From the NCBI GenBank assembly GCA_028868715.1, contig JAGWUB010000001.1, forward strand, positions 53,480-117,479: a stretch of 64,000 nt of DNA, read 5' to 3'. This DNA comes from Patescibacteria group bacterium (GTDB lineage Bacteria > Patescibacteriota > Minisyncoccia > Phycocordibacterales > UBA9973). The notes under the pieces are model-generated. The model was given only the letters and a program-made list of their open reading frames with translations, did no database searches and had not been told where the DNA came from. The first letter of the stretch is position 1. Each line of letters starts with the position of its first letter. A program made the translations under genes and the position numbers. Shown here one piece after another: positions 7,353-29,202 of the stretch.

Positions 7353-9242
7353 TTAAATTATTTTAATAGTTCCACCAGTGTTGCCGGCCATGATGTAGTC
7401 GGCAACTTTGTTTTCTACTAAGTCTTCAATGGCGCGCTTGATGGGGCGAGCACCAAACTCCGAATCAAATCCAGCGCTAGCCACCTTGTCGATGAGAGCA
7501 TCGGTGATTTCTAAAGTAATTTTTTTATCTTCATAAAGACGTTCGGCAAATTCAGCAAGCAATAATTTAGTTATCTCTCTGGCCTGCCCCGCATCAAGTG
7601 GTTTGAAAAGCACAACCGCATTAAATCTATTTAAAAATTCTGGAGCAAAGATGCTGTTTTTTATCAAACTATCAACTAAAGCTTTCTTTTCAATATTTGG
7701 ATTAGCAATAATGTCTGCGCTTCCTGCATTGGAAGTAGCGATAATCAAGGCATCTTTGAAGCTCGCCTCTCTCCCAGAGCTACGCGTCAAGCGGCCTTCA
7801 TCTAAGACTTGCAACAGCAGATTGCGAATAAGCACATTAGACTTTTCAAGCTCATCAAAAAATACCAGCGAAAGTGGAGCCTCTTCTATGGCGCTGGTTA
7901 GCCTCTCGGTAAAAGATTCAATAGAAGTAGCCAGTGAAAATTCACTCATATCAAATCGAATCATGGCATTTTTCCTTCCAAAATAACTTTCGGCCAAAAT
8001 CTTGGCAGTATAAGTCTTTCCCACTCCAGTCGGACCCAAGAATAGAAAACTGCCAGCAGGCTTGCTGTGGTCTGCAATCCCCGTACGCAAGCGGACCAAG
8101 GCTTCCGTCACATCTTTGACTGCTTCATCTTGTCCGACAATTTTCCCCCGCATTGAAGCTTCGAGCTCAAGTAGCACCTTCTTTTCATCGGCGCCGATAG
8201 CTCCTATCGGGATGTTGGTTTTATCAGATACCACTTGCCTGACATCATCTATGGTGATCACCTTTCCCAATGTTTTCAGTTCTTCCAAAACCAAGATGGA
8301 CTTCGCAGGCTGAGGTTGATTGCCGATCAGGCGGTCGGTGAGTCGCACAATTTCTAAAATGGCATCGTCGGCAATGGAAATATTGTTTATCCGAGCATTT
8401 TCCTTTAGGATAGATATCGTGTCCTCATCACTAGTTTCTGCTAAGTCTATTTTGGTAAACTTTGAGAGAAATTCTGGATGATTTTTTAATACTTGATCGT
8501 AATTTGAAAAATCGGTGGTTATAATAATTCCCAAGTGAGGCATCGCGAGATAAGGCAAAAGTCGTTCATAAATATCTTCATAGCGATGAATATTTTCAAT
8601 TATGAGAATGATATTTCCGGCGGCCGCAGCTTCGTTTAAACATTTATCAAAGTCTGGCAAGGAAAGTCCTTCAGTAAAAAGTTCTACTACTCGATGGTGA
8701 TGAATGCCGGAGAATGACAAGCCGGATTGCCCTAGCCGTCCTAGGTATGATATCAAGGTAGATTTACCGATTCCAGTGTCCCCCACTAAAAGCACGTTGT
8801 GATTGGAATCTTTCAAGAGTCCCCGTTCGATCATCCGAAGGGCTTTGTCTTTACCGTAAACTGTTTGCGGTGCTAGGCCGACGACATCCCGACTATGTTT
8901 ATTTAAGGTATAAGTTTCGCCATACGAAAGTGAGGCGCCAAAGCTGGGAAGTCTTTCTAAATAGTCTAGGTTAATTTTTATAGGAACGAGTAAAAAGATT
9001 GGAAAGGTCAAAATAGCTAAAAGGGTGAAAACTGAACCGATAATTATCAAAATAATACGAGCAACAAAGCCTATAATTCGTGACAAAAAGAAGAAAACTA
9101 TTTTTTCAAAAATAGTAAAATCGTTTCCTCTCCCAGTGTCCATTTTCCAGGGCAAAAAGAGAGTCTTTAGCAAGAGCGGAATAGAAAAAGCGTTATACGC
9201 ATAGGTCACAAGGTTCTTCCACGATTGTAGTCCTGGGTGCAT
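7353..9242 (-). CDS. Two-domain Clp/Hsp100-type AAA+ ATPase (ClpA/ClpC-like). Two N-terminal transmembrane helices replace the usual N-domain.
   Basis: First AAA domain has Walker A LLVGDTGIGKSTL. Second AAA domain has FLFLGPTGVGKTYTAKILAE...ARPIKRAIEDLV. The N-terminus carries hydrophobic stretches IIGFVARIILIIIGSVFTLLAILTFPIFLLV. Confidence 0.8.
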   Translation of the reverse strand: MHPGLQSWKNLVTYAYNAFSIPLLLKTLFLPWKMDTGRGNDFTIFEKIVFFFLSRIIGFVARIILIIIGSVFTLLAILTFPIFLLVPIKINLDYLERLPSFGASLSYGETYTLNKHSRDVVGLAPQTVYGKDKALRMIERGLLKDSNHNVLLVGDTGIGKSTLISYLGRLGQSGLSFSGIHHHRVVELFTEGLSLPDFDKCLNEAAAAGNIILIIENIHRYEDIYERLLPYLAMPHLGIIITTDFSNYDQVLKNHPEFLSKFTKIDLAETSDEDTISILKENARINNISIADDAILEIVRLTDRLIGNQPQPAKSILVLEELKTLGKVITIDDVRQVVSDKTNIPIGAIGADEKKVLLELEASMRGKIVGQDEAVKDVTEALVRLRTGIADHSKPAGSFLFLGPTGVGKTYTAKILAESYFGRKNAMIRFDMSEFSLATSIESFTERLTSAIEEAPLSLVFFDELEKSNVLIRNLLLQVLDEGRLTRSSGREASFKDALIIATSNAGSADIIANPNIEKKALVDSLIKNSIFAPEFLNRFNAVVLFKPLDAGQAREITKLLLAEFAERLYEDKKITLEITDALIDKVASAGFDSEFGARPIKRAIEDLVENKVADYIMAGNTGGTIKII

Positions 9243-9264
9243 GTGTTTATTCTAGCATAAATGG

Positions 9265-9316
9265 ATCCCGTTAGAGATAGAGGGTCGCTACGAGCCCTCG
9301 CGATCTCTAACGGGAT
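9265..9316. repeat. Hairpin element, copy 1. Arms ATCCCGTTAGAGAT and ATCTCTAACGGGAT flank an inner GC-rich near-palindrome.
   Basis: ggATCCCGTTAGAGATagagggtcgctacgagccctcgcgATCTCTAACGGGATgg, located 23 nt upstream of the Clp ATPase start. The same arms occur at 26946..27030. Confidence 0.6.
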
Positions 9317-9514
9317 GGACAAAATATAAGTATTTTGTTATACTATATGTGTAACTTTACAAATTTATTTTAACTTGGTTCGCAAGAATATTCCATATAT
9401 TATGAAGCGTTTAAGGAAAAATTTTAAAACTTTTTACCGGGCAGACAGAAAAATTACTTTGTCAAACTAAGACCATAATTATAGTGGCTCATTCTTGTAG
9501 GCTAAAAAAAGCTT

Positions 9515-11047
9515 ATGAGTATAACATTAATAACGATTCTAATAAGCGCAGTGGCGCTTCTTTTAGGTGCAGGTATCGGATACTACCTACGCTTGATAAT
9601 AGCTTTAGGCAAGCGAAGGTCTATCGAAATAGACATCAAGCAAATGATGGTTGGCGCCAAGGAGGAGGCGCAAAGGATCACCGATGAAGCCAAGAAGGCC
9701 TCTGAAGCCAAGCTAGCGGAATTAAAAGAAGAAGAAAAGAAAAAGGAGCAAGAATTTAAAGAAACTGAAAAAAGACTTATCAAAAAAGATGAGTTTTTGG
9801 ATGCTCGGCAGACAGAAATAGATAAAGAGGTAGAAAACATCAAAACAAAAGTAGAGGAAATAAAAAATATCAAAGAGAAAGTAATAAAAATAGAAGGAGA
9901 AAAGAGAGCTGAACTAGAAAAAGTAGCTGGGCTCTCCGAGGAAGAGGCCAAAGAAGAACTCTTGAAGGAAGTTGAGAAGAAATATGAAGAGGATATTGTA
10001 GTCAGAATCCAAAAAATTGAAAATGTGAATGAGGAAAAATTGGAAAGAAGGGCAAAAGACATTTTGGCCACCTCAATACAACGACTCGCTAAAAGTACTG
10101 CCTCCGAATTGATGACTACCGTCGTATCCATCCCAAACAATGAAATTAAAGGGAAAATTATAGGTAAAGAAGGTAGAAATATCAGGGCTTTTGAAAGAGC
10201 CGCTGGGGTGGAGCTCATCGTGGATGATACTCCGGGCTCAATCGTCATCTCTTCCTTTGATCCTATCAGGAGGCAAGTCGCGCGTCTGGCTTTAGAAAAC
10301 CTAATATTAGACGGACGAATTCAACCAGCCAAAATAGAAGAACTAGTAGAAAAGGCTAAAGAAGAAATAAATAAAATAATCAAAGAAAAAGGCGAGCAAG
10401 CCGTATACGAATGCGGAATCTTCAATCTAGACCCACGCATCGTCGCTATTGTCGGCAGACTTTATTTCCGCACCAGTTACGGACAAAATGTTCTCCAGCA
10501 CTCTGTAGAAATGGCGCACATCGCTGGTATGATTGCCGAAGAATTGGGCGTGGATGTAGCTATAGCTAAAGCCGGAGCCTTAGTGCACGACATCGGAAAA
10601 GCGCTTGACCACGAAGTCCAAGGAACCCACGTAGACATAGGTATGCGTATCTTGCAAAAATTCGGTGCCGACGAGCGAATTATTACCTCGATGAAGAGTC
10701 ACCACGAGCAATATCCATATGAAACGATTGAGTCTGTCATCGTTCAGACAGCTGACGCAATTTCCGGAGGACGACCTGGAGCTCGCCGTGACTCAGTAGA
10801 AAATTACCTCAAGAGACTTCAAGAGCTTGAAGCCTTGGTAAACGCCTTTCCGGCGATTGAAAAGTCATACGCGCTACAGGCGGGACGAGAAATTCGTATA
10901 TTTGTTACTCCAGAAAAAATTACTGACGCCGAAGCCAAGCTAATGGCGCGAGATATTGCAATAAAAATAGAACAAGAACTCAAATATCCAGGCGAAATCA
11001 AAGTCACGATGATACGAGAGACTAGAATTATAGAATACGCGAGATAA
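9515..11047 (+). CDS. rny: Ribonuclease Y.
   Basis: N-terminal TM, a coiled-coil region, a KH domain (GKIIGKEGRNIRAFERAAGVELIVDD) and an HD domain (LVHDIGKALDHE...SHHEQYPYE). Length is 510 aa. Confidence 0.9.
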   Translation: MSITLITILISAVALLLGAGIGYYLRLIIALGKRRSIEIDIKQMMVGAKEEAQRITDEAKKASEAKLAELKEEEKKKEQEFKETEKRLIKKDEFLDARQTEIDKEVENIKTKVEEIKNIKEKVIKIEGEKRAELEKVAGLSEEEAKEELLKEVEKKYEEDIVVRIQKIENVNEEKLERRAKDILATSIQRLAKSTASELMTTVVSIPNNEIKGKIIGKEGRNIRAFERAAGVELIVDDTPGSIVISSFDPIRRQVARLALENLILDGRIQPAKIEELVEKAKEEINKIIKEKGEQAVYECGIFNLDPRIVAIVGRLYFRTSYGQNVLQHSVEMAHIAGMIAEELGVDVAIAKAGALVHDIGKALDHEVQGTHVDIGMRILQKFGADERIITSMKSHHEQYPYETIESVIVQTADAISGGRPGARRDSVENYLKRLQELEALVNAFPAIEKSYALQAGREIRIFVTPEKITDAEAKLMARDIAIKIEQELKYPGEIKVTMIRETRIIEYAR

Positions 11048-11200: not shown

Positions 11201-11473
11201 ATGAATAAACAAGCATTAGCTGATTTAGTACATGTAAAGCTTGGTGGTACAAAGGTACAAGCCGAGGAAGTTGTTGATGGATTGTTTGATGCCATCATCG
11301 CGACTTTGAAAAAAGGTGGTGAAGTTTCAATCGCTGGCTTCGGAATCTTTTCCGTAAAGCAAAGAGCAGCTCGTATGGCTCGTAACCCAAAAACTGGAGA
11401 ACAAGTCAAAGTAGCCGCAAAAAGAGTTCCAAAATTCCGACCTGCAAAAGGTTTGAAGGACACTGTTGCTTAA
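11201..11473 (+). CDS. hup: DNA-binding protein HU.
   Basis: MNKQALADLV...GFGIFSVKQRAARMARNPKTGEQVKVAAKRVPKFRPAKGLKD is the HU/IHF fold signature. Confidence 0.9.
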   Translation: MNKQALADLVHVKLGGTKVQAEEVVDGLFDAIIATLKKGGEVSIAGFGIFSVKQRAARMARNPKTGEQVKVAAKRVPKFRPAKGLKDTVA

Positions 11474-11506
11474 ATTTTATCTCGCGAGACAAAATATAGC
11501 ATAAAC

Positions 11507-11533
11507 AAAAAACACCCTTATCGGGTGTTTTTT
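11507..11533. terminator. Bidirectional intrinsic terminator between hup (+) and lexA (-).
   Basis: The aaaaaacaccc-ttatc-gggtgtttttt hairpin has A/T runs on both sides. Confidence 0.6.
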
Positions 11534-11544
11534 GTTTATGCATT

Positions 11545-12138
11545 TTAATACTTCCTGATAACTGCCTTCACGACGGCATTTATATTTAAAGAGTGCTCTG
11601 GGTAAATTGGTTTGTATTTCTTGTTAGCTGGTTCGAGCCAAACTTTGTTTCCAGACTTGCGGAAATACTTCATGGTAAATTCTCCGTCTACTTCAGCGAT
11701 AACTATTTGCATATCACGGGCGATATTTGCTCGCTCCACGAGAACCATATCCCCTTTTTCAATGTGCGCATCAATCATAGAATCACCATCCACTTCGAGC
11801 ATATAAGTGAGTGATTTATTTTTTACCAACATATCGTCTAGGTTCACCGTGTCTACTTGTTCTTCTTCAACCGTAGCTGGTAGTCCAGCTGTCACTAGCC
11901 CAGCCATTTGAATACTGTTAAGATTTTCTGCAAAAGACTCTGACGGAATAAGTCTGCCCAAGTGATCCTTGGCCACCAACCCTGCTTCCATTAATTTCTC
12001 CACCACCTTAAACACGGCGTTCTTGGATTTGAAACCAAAGAGCTTCATCATCTCAGAATAGGTGGGCATTCGTTTATTTTTGGAGTAGAAAGATTCTATC
12101 TCGGTTTGATGAGAATTATGCATAGATATTCTTCTCAA
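11545..12138 (-). CDS. lexA: LexA repressor (S24 peptidase family).
   Basis: N-terminal winged helix-turn-helix. C-terminal autoprotease part reads VDGDSMIDAHIEKGDMVLVE...KYFRKSGNKVWLEPANKKY. Confidence 0.85.
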   Translation of the reverse strand: MRRISMHNSHQTEIESFYSKNKRMPTYSEMMKLFGFKSKNAVFKVVEKLMEAGLVAKDHLGRLIPSESFAENLNSIQMAGLVTAGLPATVEEEQVDTVNLDDMLVKNKSLTYMLEVDGDSMIDAHIEKGDMVLVERANIARDMQIVIAEVDGEFTMKYFRKSGNKVWLEPANKKYKPIYPEHSLNINAVVKAVIRKY

Positions 12139-14368: not shown

Positions 14369-14502
14369 GCCCAAATGATAACACTTTAATTTCCTATAGC
14401 AAGCCCCCACACCTTTTGTTTTTAACGAAAGGTGTAGGGGCAAGTACTATTTTTTTGTTTAATTCTGTGCTAGAATATTCGAGTGTTAATAATTTAATAT
14501 TG

Positions 14503-14635
14503 TTTTATCGAGAGTGGTGGTAGAGAATTGGCTCAGCGACCCCACAGCAACCTAAAATATAAGGTGCTAACTCCAACCCTAACCGGGAAAGATAATTAGT
14601 CATTATATTTCCTGTGTTATCAGGAATTTTTTGTT
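14503..14635 (+). ncRNA. SAM-I (S-box) riboswitch with a terminator expression platform, upstream of metK.
   Basis: P1 is ttatc...gataa. It contains AGAGtGGtGGtAGAGA, GCAACC, and AAGGTGCTAACTCC (consensus AAGGUGCCAAUUCC). The terminator hairpin ttcctgtgttatcaggaa plus tttttt is at 14609-14633. Confidence 0.65.
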
Positions 14636-14650
14636 TTCAATTATCTCACC

Positions 14651-15628
14651 ATGAAAAAAACAGCCGAATTTGTAAGCCCAAAACATCCCGACAAAATTTG
14701 CGATTTCATCGCCGACAGTATTTTAGATGCTTACTTGGAGGGCGACAGAGAAAGCCGAGTTGCGATTGAAATAATGGGCGGACACAATTTGATCACTATC
14801 AACGGTGAAGTTACTTCCAAGAGTAGTCCGAATATAGAAAAGCTGGTGAAAGAAATTGTCGGAGAAAGTTATAAAGTTGTAACCAATATTGTTTTACAAA
14901 GTACAGAAATTGCAGAAGGTGTGAACACCGGCGGAGCAGGAGACCAAGGAATTATGAAAGGTTATGCCACAAATGAGACAGCCGAATACCTACCACTAGA
15001 ATACGTACTGGCTCGTGATTTGTGCCAAAAAATATTTAATGTGTATCCCTACGACGGCAAAACCCAAGTAACTATAGAGGGTGACAAAGTGCTCACTGTG
15101 GTTGCCAGTTTTCAAAATACAAAAAATGACGAACTTTTAAAATTAACTAAAGAAATAATTAAATCTAATGAATATTTGATAAATCCAGCGGGAGAATGGA
15201 CATATGGTGGTTTTGACGCGGACACCGGACTTTCCGGTAGAAAATTAATCATAGACAACTATGGTCCGCAAATAGCAATCGGTGGTGGCTCTTTTTCAGG
15301 TAAAGATGCCACCAAGGTAGATCGCTCTGGTGCCTATATGGCGCGTTATGTCGCTAAAAATTTAGTTGCGAGTGGATATGGCAAAGAAGTATTAGTCTCT
15401 GTGGCGTATGCTATCGGCATGGCTGAACCATTGATGATAGAAGCTGTAAATGAAAAGGGTGAAGACTTGGCAGATATTGTAAAGAAAAATTTTGATTTTA
15501 AACCACTTGCCATCATCACCCGCCTCGGCTTGCGTGATCCGATCTTTCGCCAAACCGCCACCTATGGCCACTTCGGCAAACCAAATTTACCATGGGAAAA
15601 AGTTGAGAAAATAAAAGTAAAAAAGTAA
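14651..15628 (+). CDS. metK: S-adenosylmethionine synthetase, a short 325-aa form.
   Basis: Carries HPDKICD, GDQGIMKGYATNET, GLSGRKLIIDNYG...GGGSFSGKDATKVDRSGAYMARYVAKN and YGHFGKP motifs. Confidence 0.85.
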   Translation: MKKTAEFVSPKHPDKICDFIADSILDAYLEGDRESRVAIEIMGGHNLITINGEVTSKSSPNIEKLVKEIVGESYKVVTNIVLQSTEIAEGVNTGGAGDQGIMKGYATNETAEYLPLEYVLARDLCQKIFNVYPYDGKTQVTIEGDKVLTVVASFQNTKNDELLKLTKEIIKSNEYLINPAGEWTYGGFDADTGLSGRKLIIDNYGPQIAIGGGSFSGKDATKVDRSGAYMARYVAKNLVASGYGKEVLVSVAYAIGMAEPLMIEAVNEKGEDLADIVKKNFDFKPLAIITRLGLRDPIFRQTATYGHFGKPNLPWEKVEKIKVKK

Positions 15629-26071: not shown

Positions 26072-26947
26072 CTATTTCTTAATCTGGCTAGATGCTAGGC
26101 GGAGGATTATTTCGTGGACGGCATTTTCACTATTGGTTATAACCACAGAATTATCATCGGCAAAGACATACATCATCACTATTTTGTTGTCAGTATCATA
26201 TAGAATGCGCGCATTTTTGTTTTCTACAATGCCATCTTGAAATTCTTTAGTTAAGAGATATTTTGTATCGGGTGAAAAATTGATTCCAAAAAATCCATGC
26301 AAGTCCACAAACAGCTTTGGCTCCCAAGCATGCATAGTGTCAAAAATATCAGGGATAGAACGCATTTTTAATAACATAAAAAAACTCTTGCCTGCGGAGA
26401 TGGAAGGGTTGGTTTGGTCAGCACTATTAAATGCACCCATAAAGAAATTGTCGTCTATAAAGTTATTGGTACCAGGAGTAAAATTGCCCTCTATAATGGT
26501 AATAAATTGCCTCAAGCCCACTGGACCCTTATTCAGGGTTGGGTACATTCCCTCTATTCCCCCTGGTTTTACAGTAGTGTTGTTAACTGCGTTGAAAAAC
26601 TTGGCTGAGATTGCATCTTTTTTTAAATCAGCCAGCTCCAAGAGAGAATCTTTGTCGGTAAAAATTATAGGTATAAATTGTTTTTGTACTGGAACACTTG
26701 GAGCACTTCGCTGAAAAATAAAGAAGAATAAAGTTCCTAAAGAGATAAAAGTGAGAAGCATCCCCAAAAACATAAAGAATTTATTCTTTTTTGACTGCGG
26801 AGATAGCTCTCTTTTTTCTTTTTCATGCTCCTCCTCGCCGTGAATTATTTTTTTTATTAATCCACCTTTGTCCTCCTCCAAAACATGAGCCATGTCTTCG
26901 GCATAAGTTTGCACTATCTTATTTTGGGGTATGTTGTTATTTTCCAT
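26072..26947 (-). CDS. Single-pass membrane protein with a large extracytoplasmic domain, hypothetical. The start is set at the second Met to exclude the palindromic element.
   Basis: TM FFMFLGMLLTFISLGTLFFFIF. No recognised motifs. Confidence 0.45.
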   Translation of the reverse strand: MENNNIPQNKIVQTYAEDMAHVLEEDKGGLIKKIIHGEEEHEKEKRELSPQSKKNKFFMFLGMLLTFISLGTLFFFIFQRSAPSVPVQKQFIPIIFTDKDSLLELADLKKDAISAKFFNAVNNTTVKPGGIEGMYPTLNKGPVGLRQFITIIEGNFTPGTNNFIDDNFFMGAFNSADQTNPSISAGKSFFMLLKMRSIPDIFDTMHAWEPKLFVDLHGFFGINFSPDTKYLLTKEFQDGIVENKNARILYDTDNKIVMMYVFADDNSVVITNSENAVHEIILRLASSQIKK

Positions 26948-27030
26948 CCCGTTAGAGATAGGATGCGCTAGCGCATCCATAGTTATTTATATTTATAATT
27001 AATTTTAACATGATTGATCTCTAACGGGAT
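26946..27030. repeat. Hairpin element, copy 2. It has the same 14-bp arms as copy 1, plus a perfect inner palindrome GGATGCGCTAGCGCATCC.
   Basis: ATCCCGTTAGAGATaGGATGCGCTAGCGCATCC...(37 nt AT-rich)...gATCTCTAACGGGATcc. It fills the pnp-stop to next-gene-start gap. Confidence 0.6.
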
Positions 27031-27033
27031 CCA

Positions 27034-29202
27034 TTATTTTTTACCAAAAAAATCTTTGTCCGCTTCACGAATAGACAAACTCGTCTTACCATTTTCTCGA
27101 TCTACTTTGATGATCTTGACTGGCACAATCATTCCTTCTTTTATTATATCTGAAACTCTCTCTACGCGAAATGGCGCTAGCTCAGAGATATGCACCATGC
27201 CATCAGTATAAGCATTTAGTCTGATAAAAGCTCCAAAGTCCGCCACTTTGACGACTTCCCCTTTGAGCACTTCCCCGACTTGAAATTCATGCGTCATCAT
27301 TTCTACTATTTCCTTGGCCTTCTCTGCTGACTCACCTTTACCGGTAAAGTAAACTGTGCCATCGTCTTCAATAGTTATTTCTGCGCCAGTTTTTTCTTTA
27401 ATTTCTTTAATAGTCTTACCGCCACCACCGATAACCATGCCGATCTTGTCTGGTCTAATTTTTATAATCAGTATCTTTGGCGCATTTGGAGAAATATCTT
27501 TGCGTGGAGCTGGTATTTCTTTTTCAATCCTGTCGATGATAGCTATCCGAGCAGCCTTGGCCGCAACCATGGCCTCGCCAAGTATTTTTATTGGCACTCC
27601 TTCTACTTTTACATCGAGCTGGATAGCCGTCACTCCATTTCTAGTACCAGCAATTTTGAAATCCATGTCACCATGATGGTCTTCTGGGCCTTGAATATCA
27701 GTCAAAACTTTATATTTATCATCCGACTCATGCATCAAGCCCATAGCAATCCCAGCTACTGGTGCTTTGATCGGCACTCCGCCGTCCATCAGGGCTATGA
27801 TTGCGGCGCAAATTGAAGCTTGGGAAGTAGAGCCATTGGAAGCCATTGATTCCGAAACGATTCGGATGGTATAAGGAAAATCTGTTACGCTCGGCAACAC
27901 CATGGCGAGTGCTTTTTCCGCCAAAGCTCCGTGGCCGACTTCGCGACGATTGGTAAATCCCGCACGACCAACTTCTCCAGCTGAATAAGGTGGAAAATTG
28001 TAGTGGTGCATGAATCTTTTCTCGACTCGGAGTTGCATACCATCAACCAGGTTTCTATCTTCTGGGCCACCGAGAGTCAAAACTGATAAAACGTGTGTGC
28101 CTCCGCGATAAAAAATTCCAGAACCGTGCAAAATAGAGGAAATCCCGCCAGCTTGCGCATATAAGTCTCGAAGTTCATCCATTTTTCTGCCATCGGCTCG
28201 CTTGCCTTCATTGATTGCCTTAGCATGCAAGATACTATTCTCGGTATCATCAAATAGACTGTCTTCTAAAGCAAAATCATCTCTATCAGGATAGTGATCT
28301 TTGACCATTTTGTTCCAGACATTATGTAATTCATCTATTTCTTTCTTGCCTGGGCCGGCAAAAATAGCTTCATCCATCTTTGGTAGAATATTTTCGTTAA
28401 ATAATTTAACTGACTCGGCTGAAATTGTTTCCTTGGCAATAATTCTTTTTTCTTTGCCTATCTCGGCAACTATCATTTTCTGAAAATTTTCCAATTTAGT
28501 TATCTCTGCACTTGCCAACTTCAAAGCTTCTTCTAATTCTGGCTCGGGAGTCTGATGTGCCGAAGCTTCAATCATGTTTATGTTTCCGTTTTTACCGCAT
28601 ACTGTCAGATCAAATTTATATTGAGAATCATCTTCACGTAACTTTTGTGAAGGATTGATTTTTATAGTTTCGTCATCGTATTTACCAATACGCACACAGC
28701 CGATAGGACCATTCCATGGGATATTGGAAACAGCCAGAGCGAGAGAAGCCGCATTTACCGCCAAAATAGTAGGGTCATTGTCATCAACCGATATGACGGT
28801 GACGATCACTTGCACCGCATGACGAATAGAATGATCAAAAAGTGGACGGAGTGTCCTGTCAATCACCCTACTGCCGAGTACTGCATCCTCGGATGGCTTC
28901 CCTTCTCGGCGAACAAACCTAGACCCTAGAATCTTACCAGCCGCATAAAACTTTTCCACATAGTCAACTGTCAGGTTGAACCAACCCAAGCCTTTTTGGC
29001 TGTCTTTAGACATACAAGCAGTGGCTAGCACCACTGTTTCTCCATATCGGAGCATTACTGACCCATGAGCTTGTTCTGCTAAATCCGTAAAGATAGCAGT
29101 AAGGGTCCTTCCACCAACCTCAACCGAGTATTCTTTTTTTTGCATATTGTCTTTTGGGCTCCTCTTTAGAATAAAGTACTGTTCCACTATGCTGGGCAAC
29201 AT
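27034..29202 (-). CDS. pnp: Polyribonucleotide nucleotidyltransferase (PNPase).
   Basis: Two RNase PH domains, then a KH domain (GGGGKTIKEIKEKTGAEI) and an S1 domain at the C-terminus. Length is 722 aa. Confidence 0.95.
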   Translation of the reverse strand: MLPSIVEQYFILKRSPKDNMQKKEYSVEVGGRTLTAIFTDLAEQAHGSVMLRYGETVVLATACMSKDSQKGLGWFNLTVDYVEKFYAAGKILGSRFVRREGKPSEDAVLGSRVIDRTLRPLFDHSIRHAVQVIVTVISVDDNDPTILAVNAASLALAVSNIPWNGPIGCVRIGKYDDETIKINPSQKLREDDSQYKFDLTVCGKNGNINMIEASAHQTPEPELEEALKLASAEITKLENFQKMIVAEIGKEKRIIAKETISAESVKLFNENILPKMDEAIFAGPGKKEIDELHNVWNKMVKDHYPDRDDFALEDSLFDDTENSILHAKAINEGKRADGRKMDELRDLYAQAGGISSILHGSGIFYRGGTHVLSVLTLGGPEDRNLVDGMQLRVEKRFMHHYNFPPYSAGEVGRAGFTNRREVGHGALAEKALAMVLPSVTDFPYTIRIVSESMASNGSTSQASICAAIIALMDGGVPIKAPVAGIAMGLMHESDDKYKVLTDIQGPEDHHGDMDFKIAGTRNGVTAIQLDVKVEGVPIKILGEAMVAAKAARIAIIDRIEKEIPAPRKDISPNAPKILIIKIRPDKIGMVIGGGGKTIKEIKEKTGAEITIEDDGTVYFTGKGESAEKAKEIVEMMTHEFQVGEVLKGEVVKVADFGAFIRLNAYTDGMVHISELAPFRVERVSDIIKEGMIVPVKIIKVDRENGKTSLSIREADKDFFGKK

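Follow-up and report, generated by a model that had tools for sequence, protein, structure and literature searches.

What are the two short hairpins that share one pair of inverted arms in a 64,000-nucleotide stretch (the window, meaning the whole stretch analyzed) of a Patescibacteria group bacterium (assembly GCA_028868715.1, contig JAGWUB010000001.1, positions 53,480 to 117,479)? A sequence-only reading of this DNA had taken them for a miniature mobile or regulatory element of the MITE type (miniature inverted-repeat transposable element) or the REP type (repetitive extragenic palindromic), or for a paired operator. Our analysis showed that both hairpins are very probably non-autonomous miniature copies of one family of very small terminal-inverted-repeat elements of the candidate phyla radiation (CPR)/Patescibacteria, the full form of which is about 280 bp long. 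The parts of the two copies, one of them without an open reading frame (ORF), are listed here.

9265-9316, minus strand (canonical internal orientation): copy 1, an ORF-less miniature element of 52 bp, whose inner hairpin adjoins TATCTCTAACGGGAT
9265-9278, plus strand: terminal inverted repeat arm ATCCCGTTAGAGAT of copy 1, an exact match
9303-9316, plus strand: terminal inverted repeat arm ATCTCTAACGGGAT of copy 1, the exact reverse complement of ATCCCGTTAGAGAT, 24 nt away
9280-9299, no strand assigned: inner subterminal hairpin gagggtcgctacgagccctc of copy 1, seen in the fold; it is equivalent to the long-range helix inside full-length elements, minus the loop
9262-9264, plus strand: left target half of copy 1, T 9262 and the duplicated GG 9263-9264, following the T-NN-A rule described below
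9317-9319, plus strand: right target half of copy 1, the duplicated GG 9317-9318 and A 9319, following the same rule
26946-27030, minus strand: copy 2, a miniature element of 85 bp, inserted at the start codon of the gene that follows pnp
26946-26959, plus strand: arm ATCCCGTTAGAGAT of copy 2; read on the minus strand it is the gene-proximal arm ATCTCTAACGGGAT, the last two bases of which, AT, become the first two of the host ATG
27017-27030, plus strand: arm ATCTCTAACGGGAT of copy 2, the pnp-proximal arm on the minus strand, 57 nt from its partner
26961-26978, no strand assigned: inner subterminal palindrome ggatgcgctagcgcatcc of copy 2, 1 base from the gene-proximal arm
26943-26945, plus strand: target half of copy 2, T 26943 and the duplicated CC 26944-26945; on the minus strand GG-A, the first G of which (26945) completes the rebuilt ATG
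27031-27033, plus strand: target half of copy 2, the duplicated CC 27031-27032 and A 27033; on the minus strand the original ATGG, overlapping the pnp stop (TAATGG)
26952-27011, minus strand: mini-ORF of 19 codons in copy 2, MLKLIININNYGCASASYL and a stop, running from the family's internal ATG to the TAA within the arm, which 4 nt (CGGG) separate from the host ATG
26072-26947, minus strand: host gene of copy 2, encoding a conserved CPR membrane-type protein of 291 aa and unknown function; ATG rebuilt by the insertion; P0001 is 100% identical

The arms are exact in both copies and lie 24 nt and 57 nt apart, as the sequence-only reading had described. That reading gave the arms a length of 14-15 bp; 14 bp was confirmed, but the 15th position is unpaired in either copy. 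It had also reported a different GC-rich palindrome inside each copy, and this was found: gagggtcgctacgagccctc at 9280-9299 and ggatgcgctagcgcatcc at 26961-26978, with paired strands gagggtcg..cgagccctc and ggatgcgc..gcgcatcc, are two versions of one helix type. Its placement of both copies directly upstream of minus-strand gene starts had to be corrected twice: copy 1 ends 22 nt before the ATG of a clpC-like gene at 9242, and copy 2 overlaps the start codon rather than merely preceding it.

We searched the window with the 14-mer arm, allowing up to 2 mismatches, and obtained five matches against 0.44 expected, with none of 100 shuffles reaching five. By arithmetic, about 5e-4 occurrences of an exact 14-mer are expected in 128 kb of two strands, and the earlier statement that the repetition is not due to chance was borne out. 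The single 2-mismatch match, at 28279, is a lone half-site within pnp. No third copy was present within the 64-kb window when arms were searched at up to 3 mismatches and degenerate copies at up to 4, in line with the two copies first noticed. Both copies, read on either strand, folded into nested hairpins, with an outer 14-bp stem around a GC-rich inner hairpin and energies of -31.2 to -35.1 kcal/mol (z scores -5.2 to -7.0; 0 of 200 shuffles equally stable). A whole-window search of Rfam 15 at gathering scores found nothing at either locus; with the threshold relaxed to E <= 10 for the two loci, the best E values were 0.065 and above, far below the gathering scores.

To place the arms beyond the window, the exact 14-mer was scanned against one genome per species (596 Gb), which gave at least 120 loci among the matches listed and at least 32 loci with exact arms facing each other within 600 nt. 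All 32 exact pairs were in metagenome-assembled genomes (MAGs) labeled as CPR/Patescibacteria or only as 'bacterium'; the labeled lineages were Paceibacterota, Saccharibacteria, Nomura-, Ryan-, Lloyd-, Wolfe-, Yanofsky- and Zambryskibacteria. Single 14-mer matches in non-CPR genomes were as numerous as chance predicts for 596 Gb. Permitting one mismatch in one arm added 23 elements, giving at least 55 from genomes, and a metagenome scan with arms 20-50 nt apart added 94 further loci. More than 130 distinct elements bounded by these arms were thus found in CPR genomes and metagenomes. They measured 49 to 282 bp, with size clusters at about 49-77, 104-136, 158-194 and 278-282 bp and an arm spacing of 21-254 nt. 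Several MAGs had elements at more than one locus, and the wider search yielded many further copies across related genomes rather than within this one genome. Carriage by phages was considered and rejected: among the viral-contig matches listed there was no arm pair, and the single 14-mer matches (at least 120) were unpaired, as chance predicts.

For copy 2, close relatives showed what the site looks like when unoccupied. The minus strand of the window's locus reads ...AAAAAATA-ATGG, then the 85 bp of the element, then GG-AAAATAAC.... In four relatives (L121-L124) the site reads ...ATGGAAAAT... with no element and with 18-19 nt from pnp to the ATG; the host protein is 67-69% identical and the gene order is the same (M23 peptidase, pnp, gene). 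The empty-site readings were either ...AAAAAATATC-ATGGAAAATAAT... or ...AGTC-ATGGAACCA..., and the empty start site reads ATGGAA. Two more loci (L341 and L342) were likewise empty at the position of copy 2.

The flanks of the elements showed a constant target. The dinucleotides on either side were identical in 105 of the 131 non-redundant elements; a T stood before the left dinucleotide (position -3) in 118 of 131 and an A after the right one (+3) in 116 of 131, with both present in 110 of 131. The target is 5'-T-NN-A-3', and NN is duplicated in all size classes. Among the duplicated pairs GA/TC was the most frequent (56), followed by AA/TT (16), TG/CA (15) and GG/CC (13), and TA occurred in 3 of 105. 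Both copies in the window follow this rule with a 2-bp duplication each, GG for copy 1 (T-GG-copy 1-GG-A) and CC for copy 2 (T-CC-copy 2-CC-A).

The elements also showed a strong preference for start codons. The ends of the element are AT...AT; when it enters ATG-R-A, ATGR therefore remains on its upstream side and a new ATG-R-A is formed on its downstream side, and the host gene stays intact. On one strand, 45 of the 55 genome elements rebuilt an ATG followed by at least 50 codons (41 of them by at least 100 codons), and for the opposite strand the count was 0 of 55. The orientation was that of the host gene in 40 of the 45 start-site elements. We then reconstructed 105 empty sites by removing each element together with one copy of the duplicate. 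An ATG heading at least 50 codons was present at 57 of these 105 sites, and in 53 of the 57 no earlier ATG stood in the frame, which was open for no more than 30 codons before it (the median over all 57 was 5 codons). By comparison, only 0.54% of 153,937 T-NN-A sites in the same loci qualify, and the elements do so at about 100 times that rate. When contig-truncated ORFs and GTG/TTG originals were counted as well, 79 of 131 elements were at a gene start, so that about 55-60% of the elements lie at a start codon (ATG-R-A). The elements away from starts avoid coding sequence: open frames of 100 codons or more contained 15 of these 48, compared with 77% of random sites.

Four elements (L249 366-441, L285 1179-1248, L272 6845-6896 and L317 317-381) were at GTG-A or TTG-A starts, where the old codon was left upstream and the host gained an ATG. 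A corresponding stop-codon habit, suggested by flanks such as GTAA-element-AA and TTG-element-TGA, was rejected, with 2 of 105 sites at ORF ends, not above the 2.6% null. A subfamily of about 67-70 bp (metagenome loci L266, L275, L287, L297, L300, L316 and L318) has two GC-rich hairpins between its arms and flanks of GTAA and AA (or TT and TTAC on the other strand); it is mostly away from gene starts, and the ORF-end test gave no stop-codon link for it.

Some sites were used repeatedly. We found a solo arm end abutting an element (L004), an array with variant arms (L007) and nested elements (L021 and L116), and these tandem and nested insertions target the rebuilt ATGA. Arm subfamilies with the same outermost ATCCCGT...ACGGGAT but a different inward sequence (ATCCCGTAGTAG..., TCCCGTTAGAAnC...) occurred at L007 5897-6230, L021 3210-3382 and L116 7139-7296, in tandem to or nested inside elements with the window's arms. 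The family therefore has several arm variants, and the rebuilt ATGA sites are struck again. Two orthologous GTPase genes from two genomes (about 69% identical, both starting MEIRNIAIIAHVDHGKTT) have an element at the same ATGG start codon (L003 2392-2518 and L090 4709-4830). The two elements have opposite internal orientation, which would reflect either independent insertions at the same site or an inversion between the arms.

The longest copies, of 278-282 bp, were filled by one ORF of 84-95 aa encoding a single-domain GIY-YIG protein, with PF01541 as the only domain (E 1e-17 to 1e-20). The nearest solved structure was UPF0213 BH0048 (E 1.9e-8), and the matches to EF2693 (E 0.03) and Slx1 (E 0.05) were not significant. 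The best plasmid match was B. subtilis yazA, and NCBIfam gave a weak match to a group I intron endonuclease model, far below its cut-off. The nuclease is, by sequence similarity, of the UPF0213/YazA/Slx1 type. Because the single ORF fills the whole element, the arms encode the ends of the protein (M-N-P-V-R-D... and ...F-L-S-L-T-G). Two types of ORF were seen. In type A the ATG of the host gene itself is the start; the frame crosses the left arm (M-N-P-V-R-D) and ends ...K-R-F-L-S-L-T-G, and it is closed by the TGA contained in the ATGA of the right junction. Type B runs from an internal ATG just inside the left arm to a TAA inside the right arm (CTC TAA CGGG ATG). At least 3,324 protein clusters (90% identity) matched the nuclease, and among the best 120 of these, 90 began M.PVRD and 104 ended SLTG, both encoded by the arms. 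Among representatives at 50% identity, 7,878 matched at E <= 1e-3 and 1,124 at E <= 1e-10. The source annotations of these proteins were 'GIY-YIG nuclease family protein', 'putative endonuclease' and 'excinuclease ABC subunit C'.

An alignment of nine full-length copies (A2) revealed a helix inside the element. Columns 94-108, which are the L-R-K-R-F codons, pair with columns 253-267, the K-R-F codons of the 3' end, in a long-range pairing across about 144 nt whose 3' strand lies one base from the right arm. In this helix 94.7% of cells were paired and 6 of the 15 pairs had compensatory changes on both sides, and sliding the partner by 1-3 columns reduced pairing to 28-46%. The short elements retain the helix, closed by a loop of a few bases. 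We looked for perfect stems (6 bp or longer) in 69 short elements at start sites: 27 had one adjoining the gene-proximal arm (about 1.5 expected by shuffling) and 18 had one adjoining the other arm. The inner palindromes of the window's copies correspond to this covarying helix with its loop deleted; they differ in sequence and not in kind, because the short copies keep only the arms and the subterminal helix. With two arms and one subterminal helix as the conserved cis parts, the pattern points to recognition of folded nucleic acid.

Of the possibilities first named for the hairpins, a miniature MITE-like element is therefore the one that we retain. The copies have 14-bp arms and a target duplication, they measure 52 and 85 bp without a mobilizing enzyme of their own, their ends are common to a longer, nuclease-coding element of about 280 bp, they belong to a set of more than 130 sites, and the site of copy 2 is empty in relatives.

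Membership in the family could also arise without movement of the short forms. A full-length element could once have been at each of the two window sites and lost its interior by deletion, so that the short hairpins never moved. We consider such decay in place rather unlikely. The shared orientation of 40 of the 45 start-site elements with their hosts is what descendants of translated copies would show, the interiors of the copies of about 120 nt are strongly divergent from one another, and the interior of copy 2 begins CAATCATGTT like that of a full-length element (L087), with the full-length frame kept to the TAA of the arm. However, the exact 52 nt of copy 1 recurred at two other loci (L256 and L331) with unrelated flanks, and variants with 1-5 mismatches occurred at four more (L273, L339, L272 and L247), each with its own flanking dinucleotides. 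Because the exact 52 nt stand at other sites with unrelated flanks, the copy 1 hairpin is a discrete unit that recurs at multiple sites. Several further minimal subfamilies likewise recurred at differing sites with target duplications of their own. A translated full-length ancestor is also unlikely at copy 1, since this copy is inverted relative to its ATGG target and no gene start is there. Decay in place may still account for copy 2. An 86-bp element in a Parcubacteria MAG (L059 5350-5435, site ATGC-element-GC) has the same inner palindrome (GGATGCGCTAGCGCATCC) as copy 2, while the rest of its interior and its host gene differ, and another locus (L025) has a related inner palindrome.

For the mobile family, the next question is what moves it. 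We infer that the GIY-YIG nuclease does so, because it is the sole gene that the elements carry and because 2-nt staggered cuts are typical of the GIY-YIG fold. The nuclease would make 2-nt staggered cuts at T^NN, recognizing the arm/hairpin structure, possibly as single-stranded DNA (ssDNA) in the manner of the Ssn nucleases described below. The start-codon bias would result mainly from selection in very compact genomes, together with the autonomous copy's need for translation: on each strand T-NN-A alone turns up roughly every 16 bp, and hardly any DNA in CPR genomes is spare. At a start codon that precedes a codon beginning AA or GA, insertion would be harmless and the nuclease ORF would gain a ribosome-binding site for free. 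A type A ORF borrows the ribosome-binding site and the ATG of the host. The nuclease stop either overlaps the rebuilt ATG (TGA) or ends 4 nt before it (TAA), and the host gene could be translated by termination-reinitiation via the element's ORF or a mini-ORF. In copy 2 this chain would lead from the pnp stop (TAATG) through a 9-codon ORF to MLKLIININNYGCASASYL and its stop (27011-26952) and then to the host ATG (26947). ATG-initiated ORFs of at least 15 codons that end at the arm or junction stops were found in 17 of 38 short elements, compared with 5.3 ± 2.1 in shuffles (0 of 1000 shuffles).

It is a genuine possibility, which we put forward tentatively, that the arm-ORF-arm unit of about 280 bp is an autonomous DNA transposon of a new enzymatic class. 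A GIY-YIG domain of about 90 aa alone would excise and insert it at T-NN-A via the folded arm/hairpin (possibly as ssDNA). Landing on the start codon, with the host translation start borrowed and ribosomes handed back through the stop/start overlap, would let it persist in ultra-compact genomes, and the 52- and 85-bp hairpins of the window would be its MITEs. If this were true, no smaller self-sufficient mobile element would be known from cells. Should the nuclease prove to be the mobilizing enzyme, a GIY-YIG class would join the known DNA transposases (DDE, HUH, serine and tyrosine recombinases, Cas1).

Several observations weigh against these interpretations. The mobilizing role of the nuclease is putative, drawn from association. 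As a transposase candidate, a lone catalytic domain of some 85 aa, with no DNA-binding domain, is unusual, and within the 64-kb window tblastn found no GIY-YIG ORF, only a weak 11-aa match at 11574-11606. The loci were gathered by exact or near-exact arm matches, so the conservation of the arms is partly by construction. At the site of copy 1, a relative with 80% identity (L125) has no arms but has 49 nt of unrelated sequence; since this sequence is not collinear, the locus is not a clean empty site for copy 1. Finally, 21 of the 38 short elements had no through-ORF, so coupling is not general and another route must exist, for which the arm stem might loop out the insert. Termination-reinitiation is the weakest step of the proposed mechanism.

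The closest published system is Ssn/NTS (CDD family cd10448), in which single-domain GIY-YIG proteins of 94 aa bind hairpin repeats as ssDNA and cut a few nt upstream (PMC11893778, Chenal et al., Nat Commun 2025). According to that paper, recognition depends on structure and sequence, cleavage falls in the variable flank, and the nucleases modulate transformation (PMC11893778). The Ssn genes are bracketed by hairpin repeats that are also frequent elsewhere in the genome; the authors remark on the layout as resembling that of an insertion sequence (IS) (PMC11893778). A mobile-element origin of the recently described Ssn/NTS system is so far a hypothesis only. The CPR nuclease is similar in being a single GIY-YIG domain, of 84-95 aa in the full-length copies (not in the window copies) against about 94 aa, and in having its gene flanked on both sides by a repeat, with the CPR arms even overlapping the ORF. 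In contrast, the 14-bp CPR arms pair across the whole gene, whereas the Ssn gene has a self-contained hairpin of about 28 nt on each side. The SRM consensus given for Ssn (HGTCWY..YYVSBRH..WNVSBRG..RNCYNB; PMC11893778) matched 0 of 156 CPR elements when their 40-nt flanks and both strands were included, and the CPR protein is nearest to UPF0213/YazA. The available part of the paper makes no mention for Ssn of a T-NN-A target, a 2-bp duplication or start-codon placement, and the terms 'Patescibacteria' and 'candidate phyla' are absent from its main text (PMC11893778).

The likeness to Ssn/NTS raises an alternative in which the hairpins serve the host. A resident small GIY-YIG nuclease would cut the hairpins in ssDNA, for example during competence uptake, and so shape recombination near the marked genes, with the repeats maintained for this role and not as selfish DNA. 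The precedent of a nuclease of the same size with a single domain, the 'like an IS' flanking of its genes by repeats (both PMC11893778) and the conservation of a cis structure by covariation all fit such a system. We nevertheless regard it as improbable: the SRM consensus fitted none of the CPR elements, the nearest protein relatives are of the UPF0213/YazA type, the target duplications, the tandem and nested insertions and the presence/absence differences are marks of transposition that need no host function, and placement at start codons has no obvious tie to recombination control. This alternative is compatible with a mobile origin followed by co-option, and it adds to the mobile-element explanation more than it replaces it.

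That the hairpins are instead conserved regulatory sites, either the paired operator of a stress or proteostasis repressor, as the copy upstream of a Clp ATPase gene could suggest, or a translational-control hairpin that evolved in place, can be dismissed as exceedingly improbable, for, despite the place of copy 1 between the promoters of rny and the clpC-like gene, the start codon under copy 2 and the high stability of both hairpins, the arms are at more than 130 sites by mutually unrelated host genes in many CPR lineages, their spacing is not fixed (21-254 nt), they can enclose a nuclease gene and are flanked by duplicated dinucleotides, the orthologous sites are empty in relatives, Rfam gave no match at either locus, and the arm differs from the consensus sequences of all three heat-shock operators considered (CIRCE, the CtsR box and HAIR). 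Integron attC sites, which have the core-site order AAC...GTT, were rejected as well, the order being reversed here (GTT...AAC) with no integron context.

The mobile family was further compared with other small mobile elements. The Correia/NEMIS MITEs of Neisseria are alike in having about 50-190 bp, no ORF, terminal inverted repeats, a short target duplication and many copies near genes, and transcribed Correia copies form long hairpins. The bacterial MITEs known so far derive from IS elements with DDE transposases. Here, in contrast to Correia/NEMIS, the sole candidate partner is the 280-bp GIY-YIG element, the target is T-NN-A and not TA, and the main site is the start codon itself. REP/REPIN-RAYT systems and IS200/IS605 also have short palindromic repeats flanking a small nuclease gene and subterminal hairpins as cis signals, and an ssDNA mechanism is plausible in both cases. 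However, the CPR elements have no HUH/Y1 enzyme (RAYT) and no GTAG/CGTC tag, their arms begin ATCCCG, and they duplicate 2 bp, whereas IS200/IS605 is not known to make a target duplication; the term REP-like, as first applied to the hairpins, holds as an analogy only.

The family resembles IS630/Tc1-mariner in its terminal inverted repeats and in duplicating 2 bp within a target that is short and palindromic. In IS630/Tc1-mariner the duplicated pair is TA and the transposase is a DDE enzyme of more than 300 aa, whereas the NN duplicated by the CPR elements is variable (TA in 3 of 105, as given above) and the protein is of the GIY-YIG kind. The GIY-YIG homing endonucleases (I-TevI, Seg proteins) likewise place a GIY-YIG catalytic domain in a selfish element, but they have a separate DNA-binding domain and one long target in one gene, with no inverted repeats or duplication, while the CPR elements have the catalytic domain alone and are at many unrelated genes whose sites share only T-NN-A. 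The Rickettsia palindromic elements (RPE) are small palindromic mobile elements of reduced genomes that survive where the host gene stays functional. Unlike RPE, which are in frame inside coding regions and become part of the protein, the CPR elements are at the gene boundary and rebuild the start codon.

The family is widespread, extremely small and apparently undescribed, with an unusual insertion habit, and the hairpins of the window are ordinary members of it; we found no description of the element in open-access papers and bioRxiv. The usual picture of CPR/Patescibacteria genomes is one of streamlining and few classical insertion sequences; the thousands of nuclease clusters mean that they carry an abundant mobile element. 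The element escaped notice because it is smaller than the range of IS finders and is hidden at gene starts. It is a natural partner case for Ssn/NTS, and its start-codon habit offers a clear, testable example of selfish DNA persisting where nearly every base codes.

There are also consequences for annotation, as gene callers may extend or mis-start host genes and name the ORFs of the element as repair proteins. In the window, the real ORF of the copy 2 host is 26072-26947 (291 aa), which is also the NCBI call, while a listed 302-aa ORF from 26980 reads into the element. On the minus strand the element ends with 26947-26946, and these two bases serve as the A and T with which the real start codon begins. 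We found 671 homologs of the 291-aa protein; in those listed the N terminus coincides with the rebuilt ATG, almost always as ME or MD. Several database homologs have false N-terminal extensions from the 3' end of pnp in another frame (L341 1201-1253). A second element family, considered from N-terminal extensions of this kind (P0066, P0072, P0085 and P0088), was rejected, since these are gene calls over the 3' end of pnp and not insertions.

The window is CPR/Patescibacteria chromosome, and its genes around the two copies are those for trigger factor, clpP, the ClpC-like ATPase, RNase Y, PNPase and the 291-aa conserved protein. The ATPase, like the 291-aa protein, is identical to an NCBI protein of a 'Patescibacteria group bacterium' MAG, encoded on a contig of 312,596 bp. 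The features that bear on the two sites are the following.

7353-9242, minus strand: ClpC-like ATPase, 629 aa
9316-9344, plus strand: promoter-like site for rny, with -35 TGGACA, 17 nt and TG-extended -10 TATACT; 10 of 12 consensus matches, a consensus match only
9515-11047, plus strand: RNase Y (rny)
27034-29202, minus strand: PNPase (pnp)

Copy 1 occupies part of the 272 nt that separate the divergent clpC-like and rny genes. A 5-kb Logan contig reached via P0121 has the same copy 1, which is also present in the raw reads SRR32006839. The plus-strand target, ATGG-A, opens a frame of only 4 codons and so heads no gene; it coincides with the -35 hexamer of the promoter-like site for rny. This hexamer was rebuilt by the insertion, since its T comes from the element's final base and its GG from the duplicated target. 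In the 80%-identity relative (L125) the same promoter-like geometry, TAGACA ... TATACT, was present at the corresponding place. Copy 1 is a tolerated insertion between two divergent promoters and need not have a host function. Copy 2, between the pnp stop codon and the next gene, is a tolerated start-codon insertion, and a host function is not required for it either.

On the other side of copy 1, a TG-extended -10 of the clpC-like gene (TGCTAGAAT) ends 6 nt before the ATG, with no Shine-Dalgarno sequence (window 9243-9264, minus strand). The geometry is kept in the 80%-identity relative (L125 2140-2170), and copy 1 is just upstream of this -10. These features suggest that the clpC-like mRNA may be leaderless.

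Two other structured elements were observed in the window. A SAM riboswitch (RF00162) was found at 14502-14598 (plus strand), with 56.5 bits against a gathering score of 44.4, directly 5' of an ORF at 14651-15628. A perfect 19-bp hairpin (GCATAAACAAAAAACACCC / GGGTGTTTTTTGTTTATGC) was present at 11499-11541, about 450 nt downstream of rny, with a second palindrome next to it at 11471-11498. The 19-bp hairpin sits between two converging ORFs, 11201-11473 (plus strand) and 11545-12138 (minus strand), and looks like a two-way terminator.

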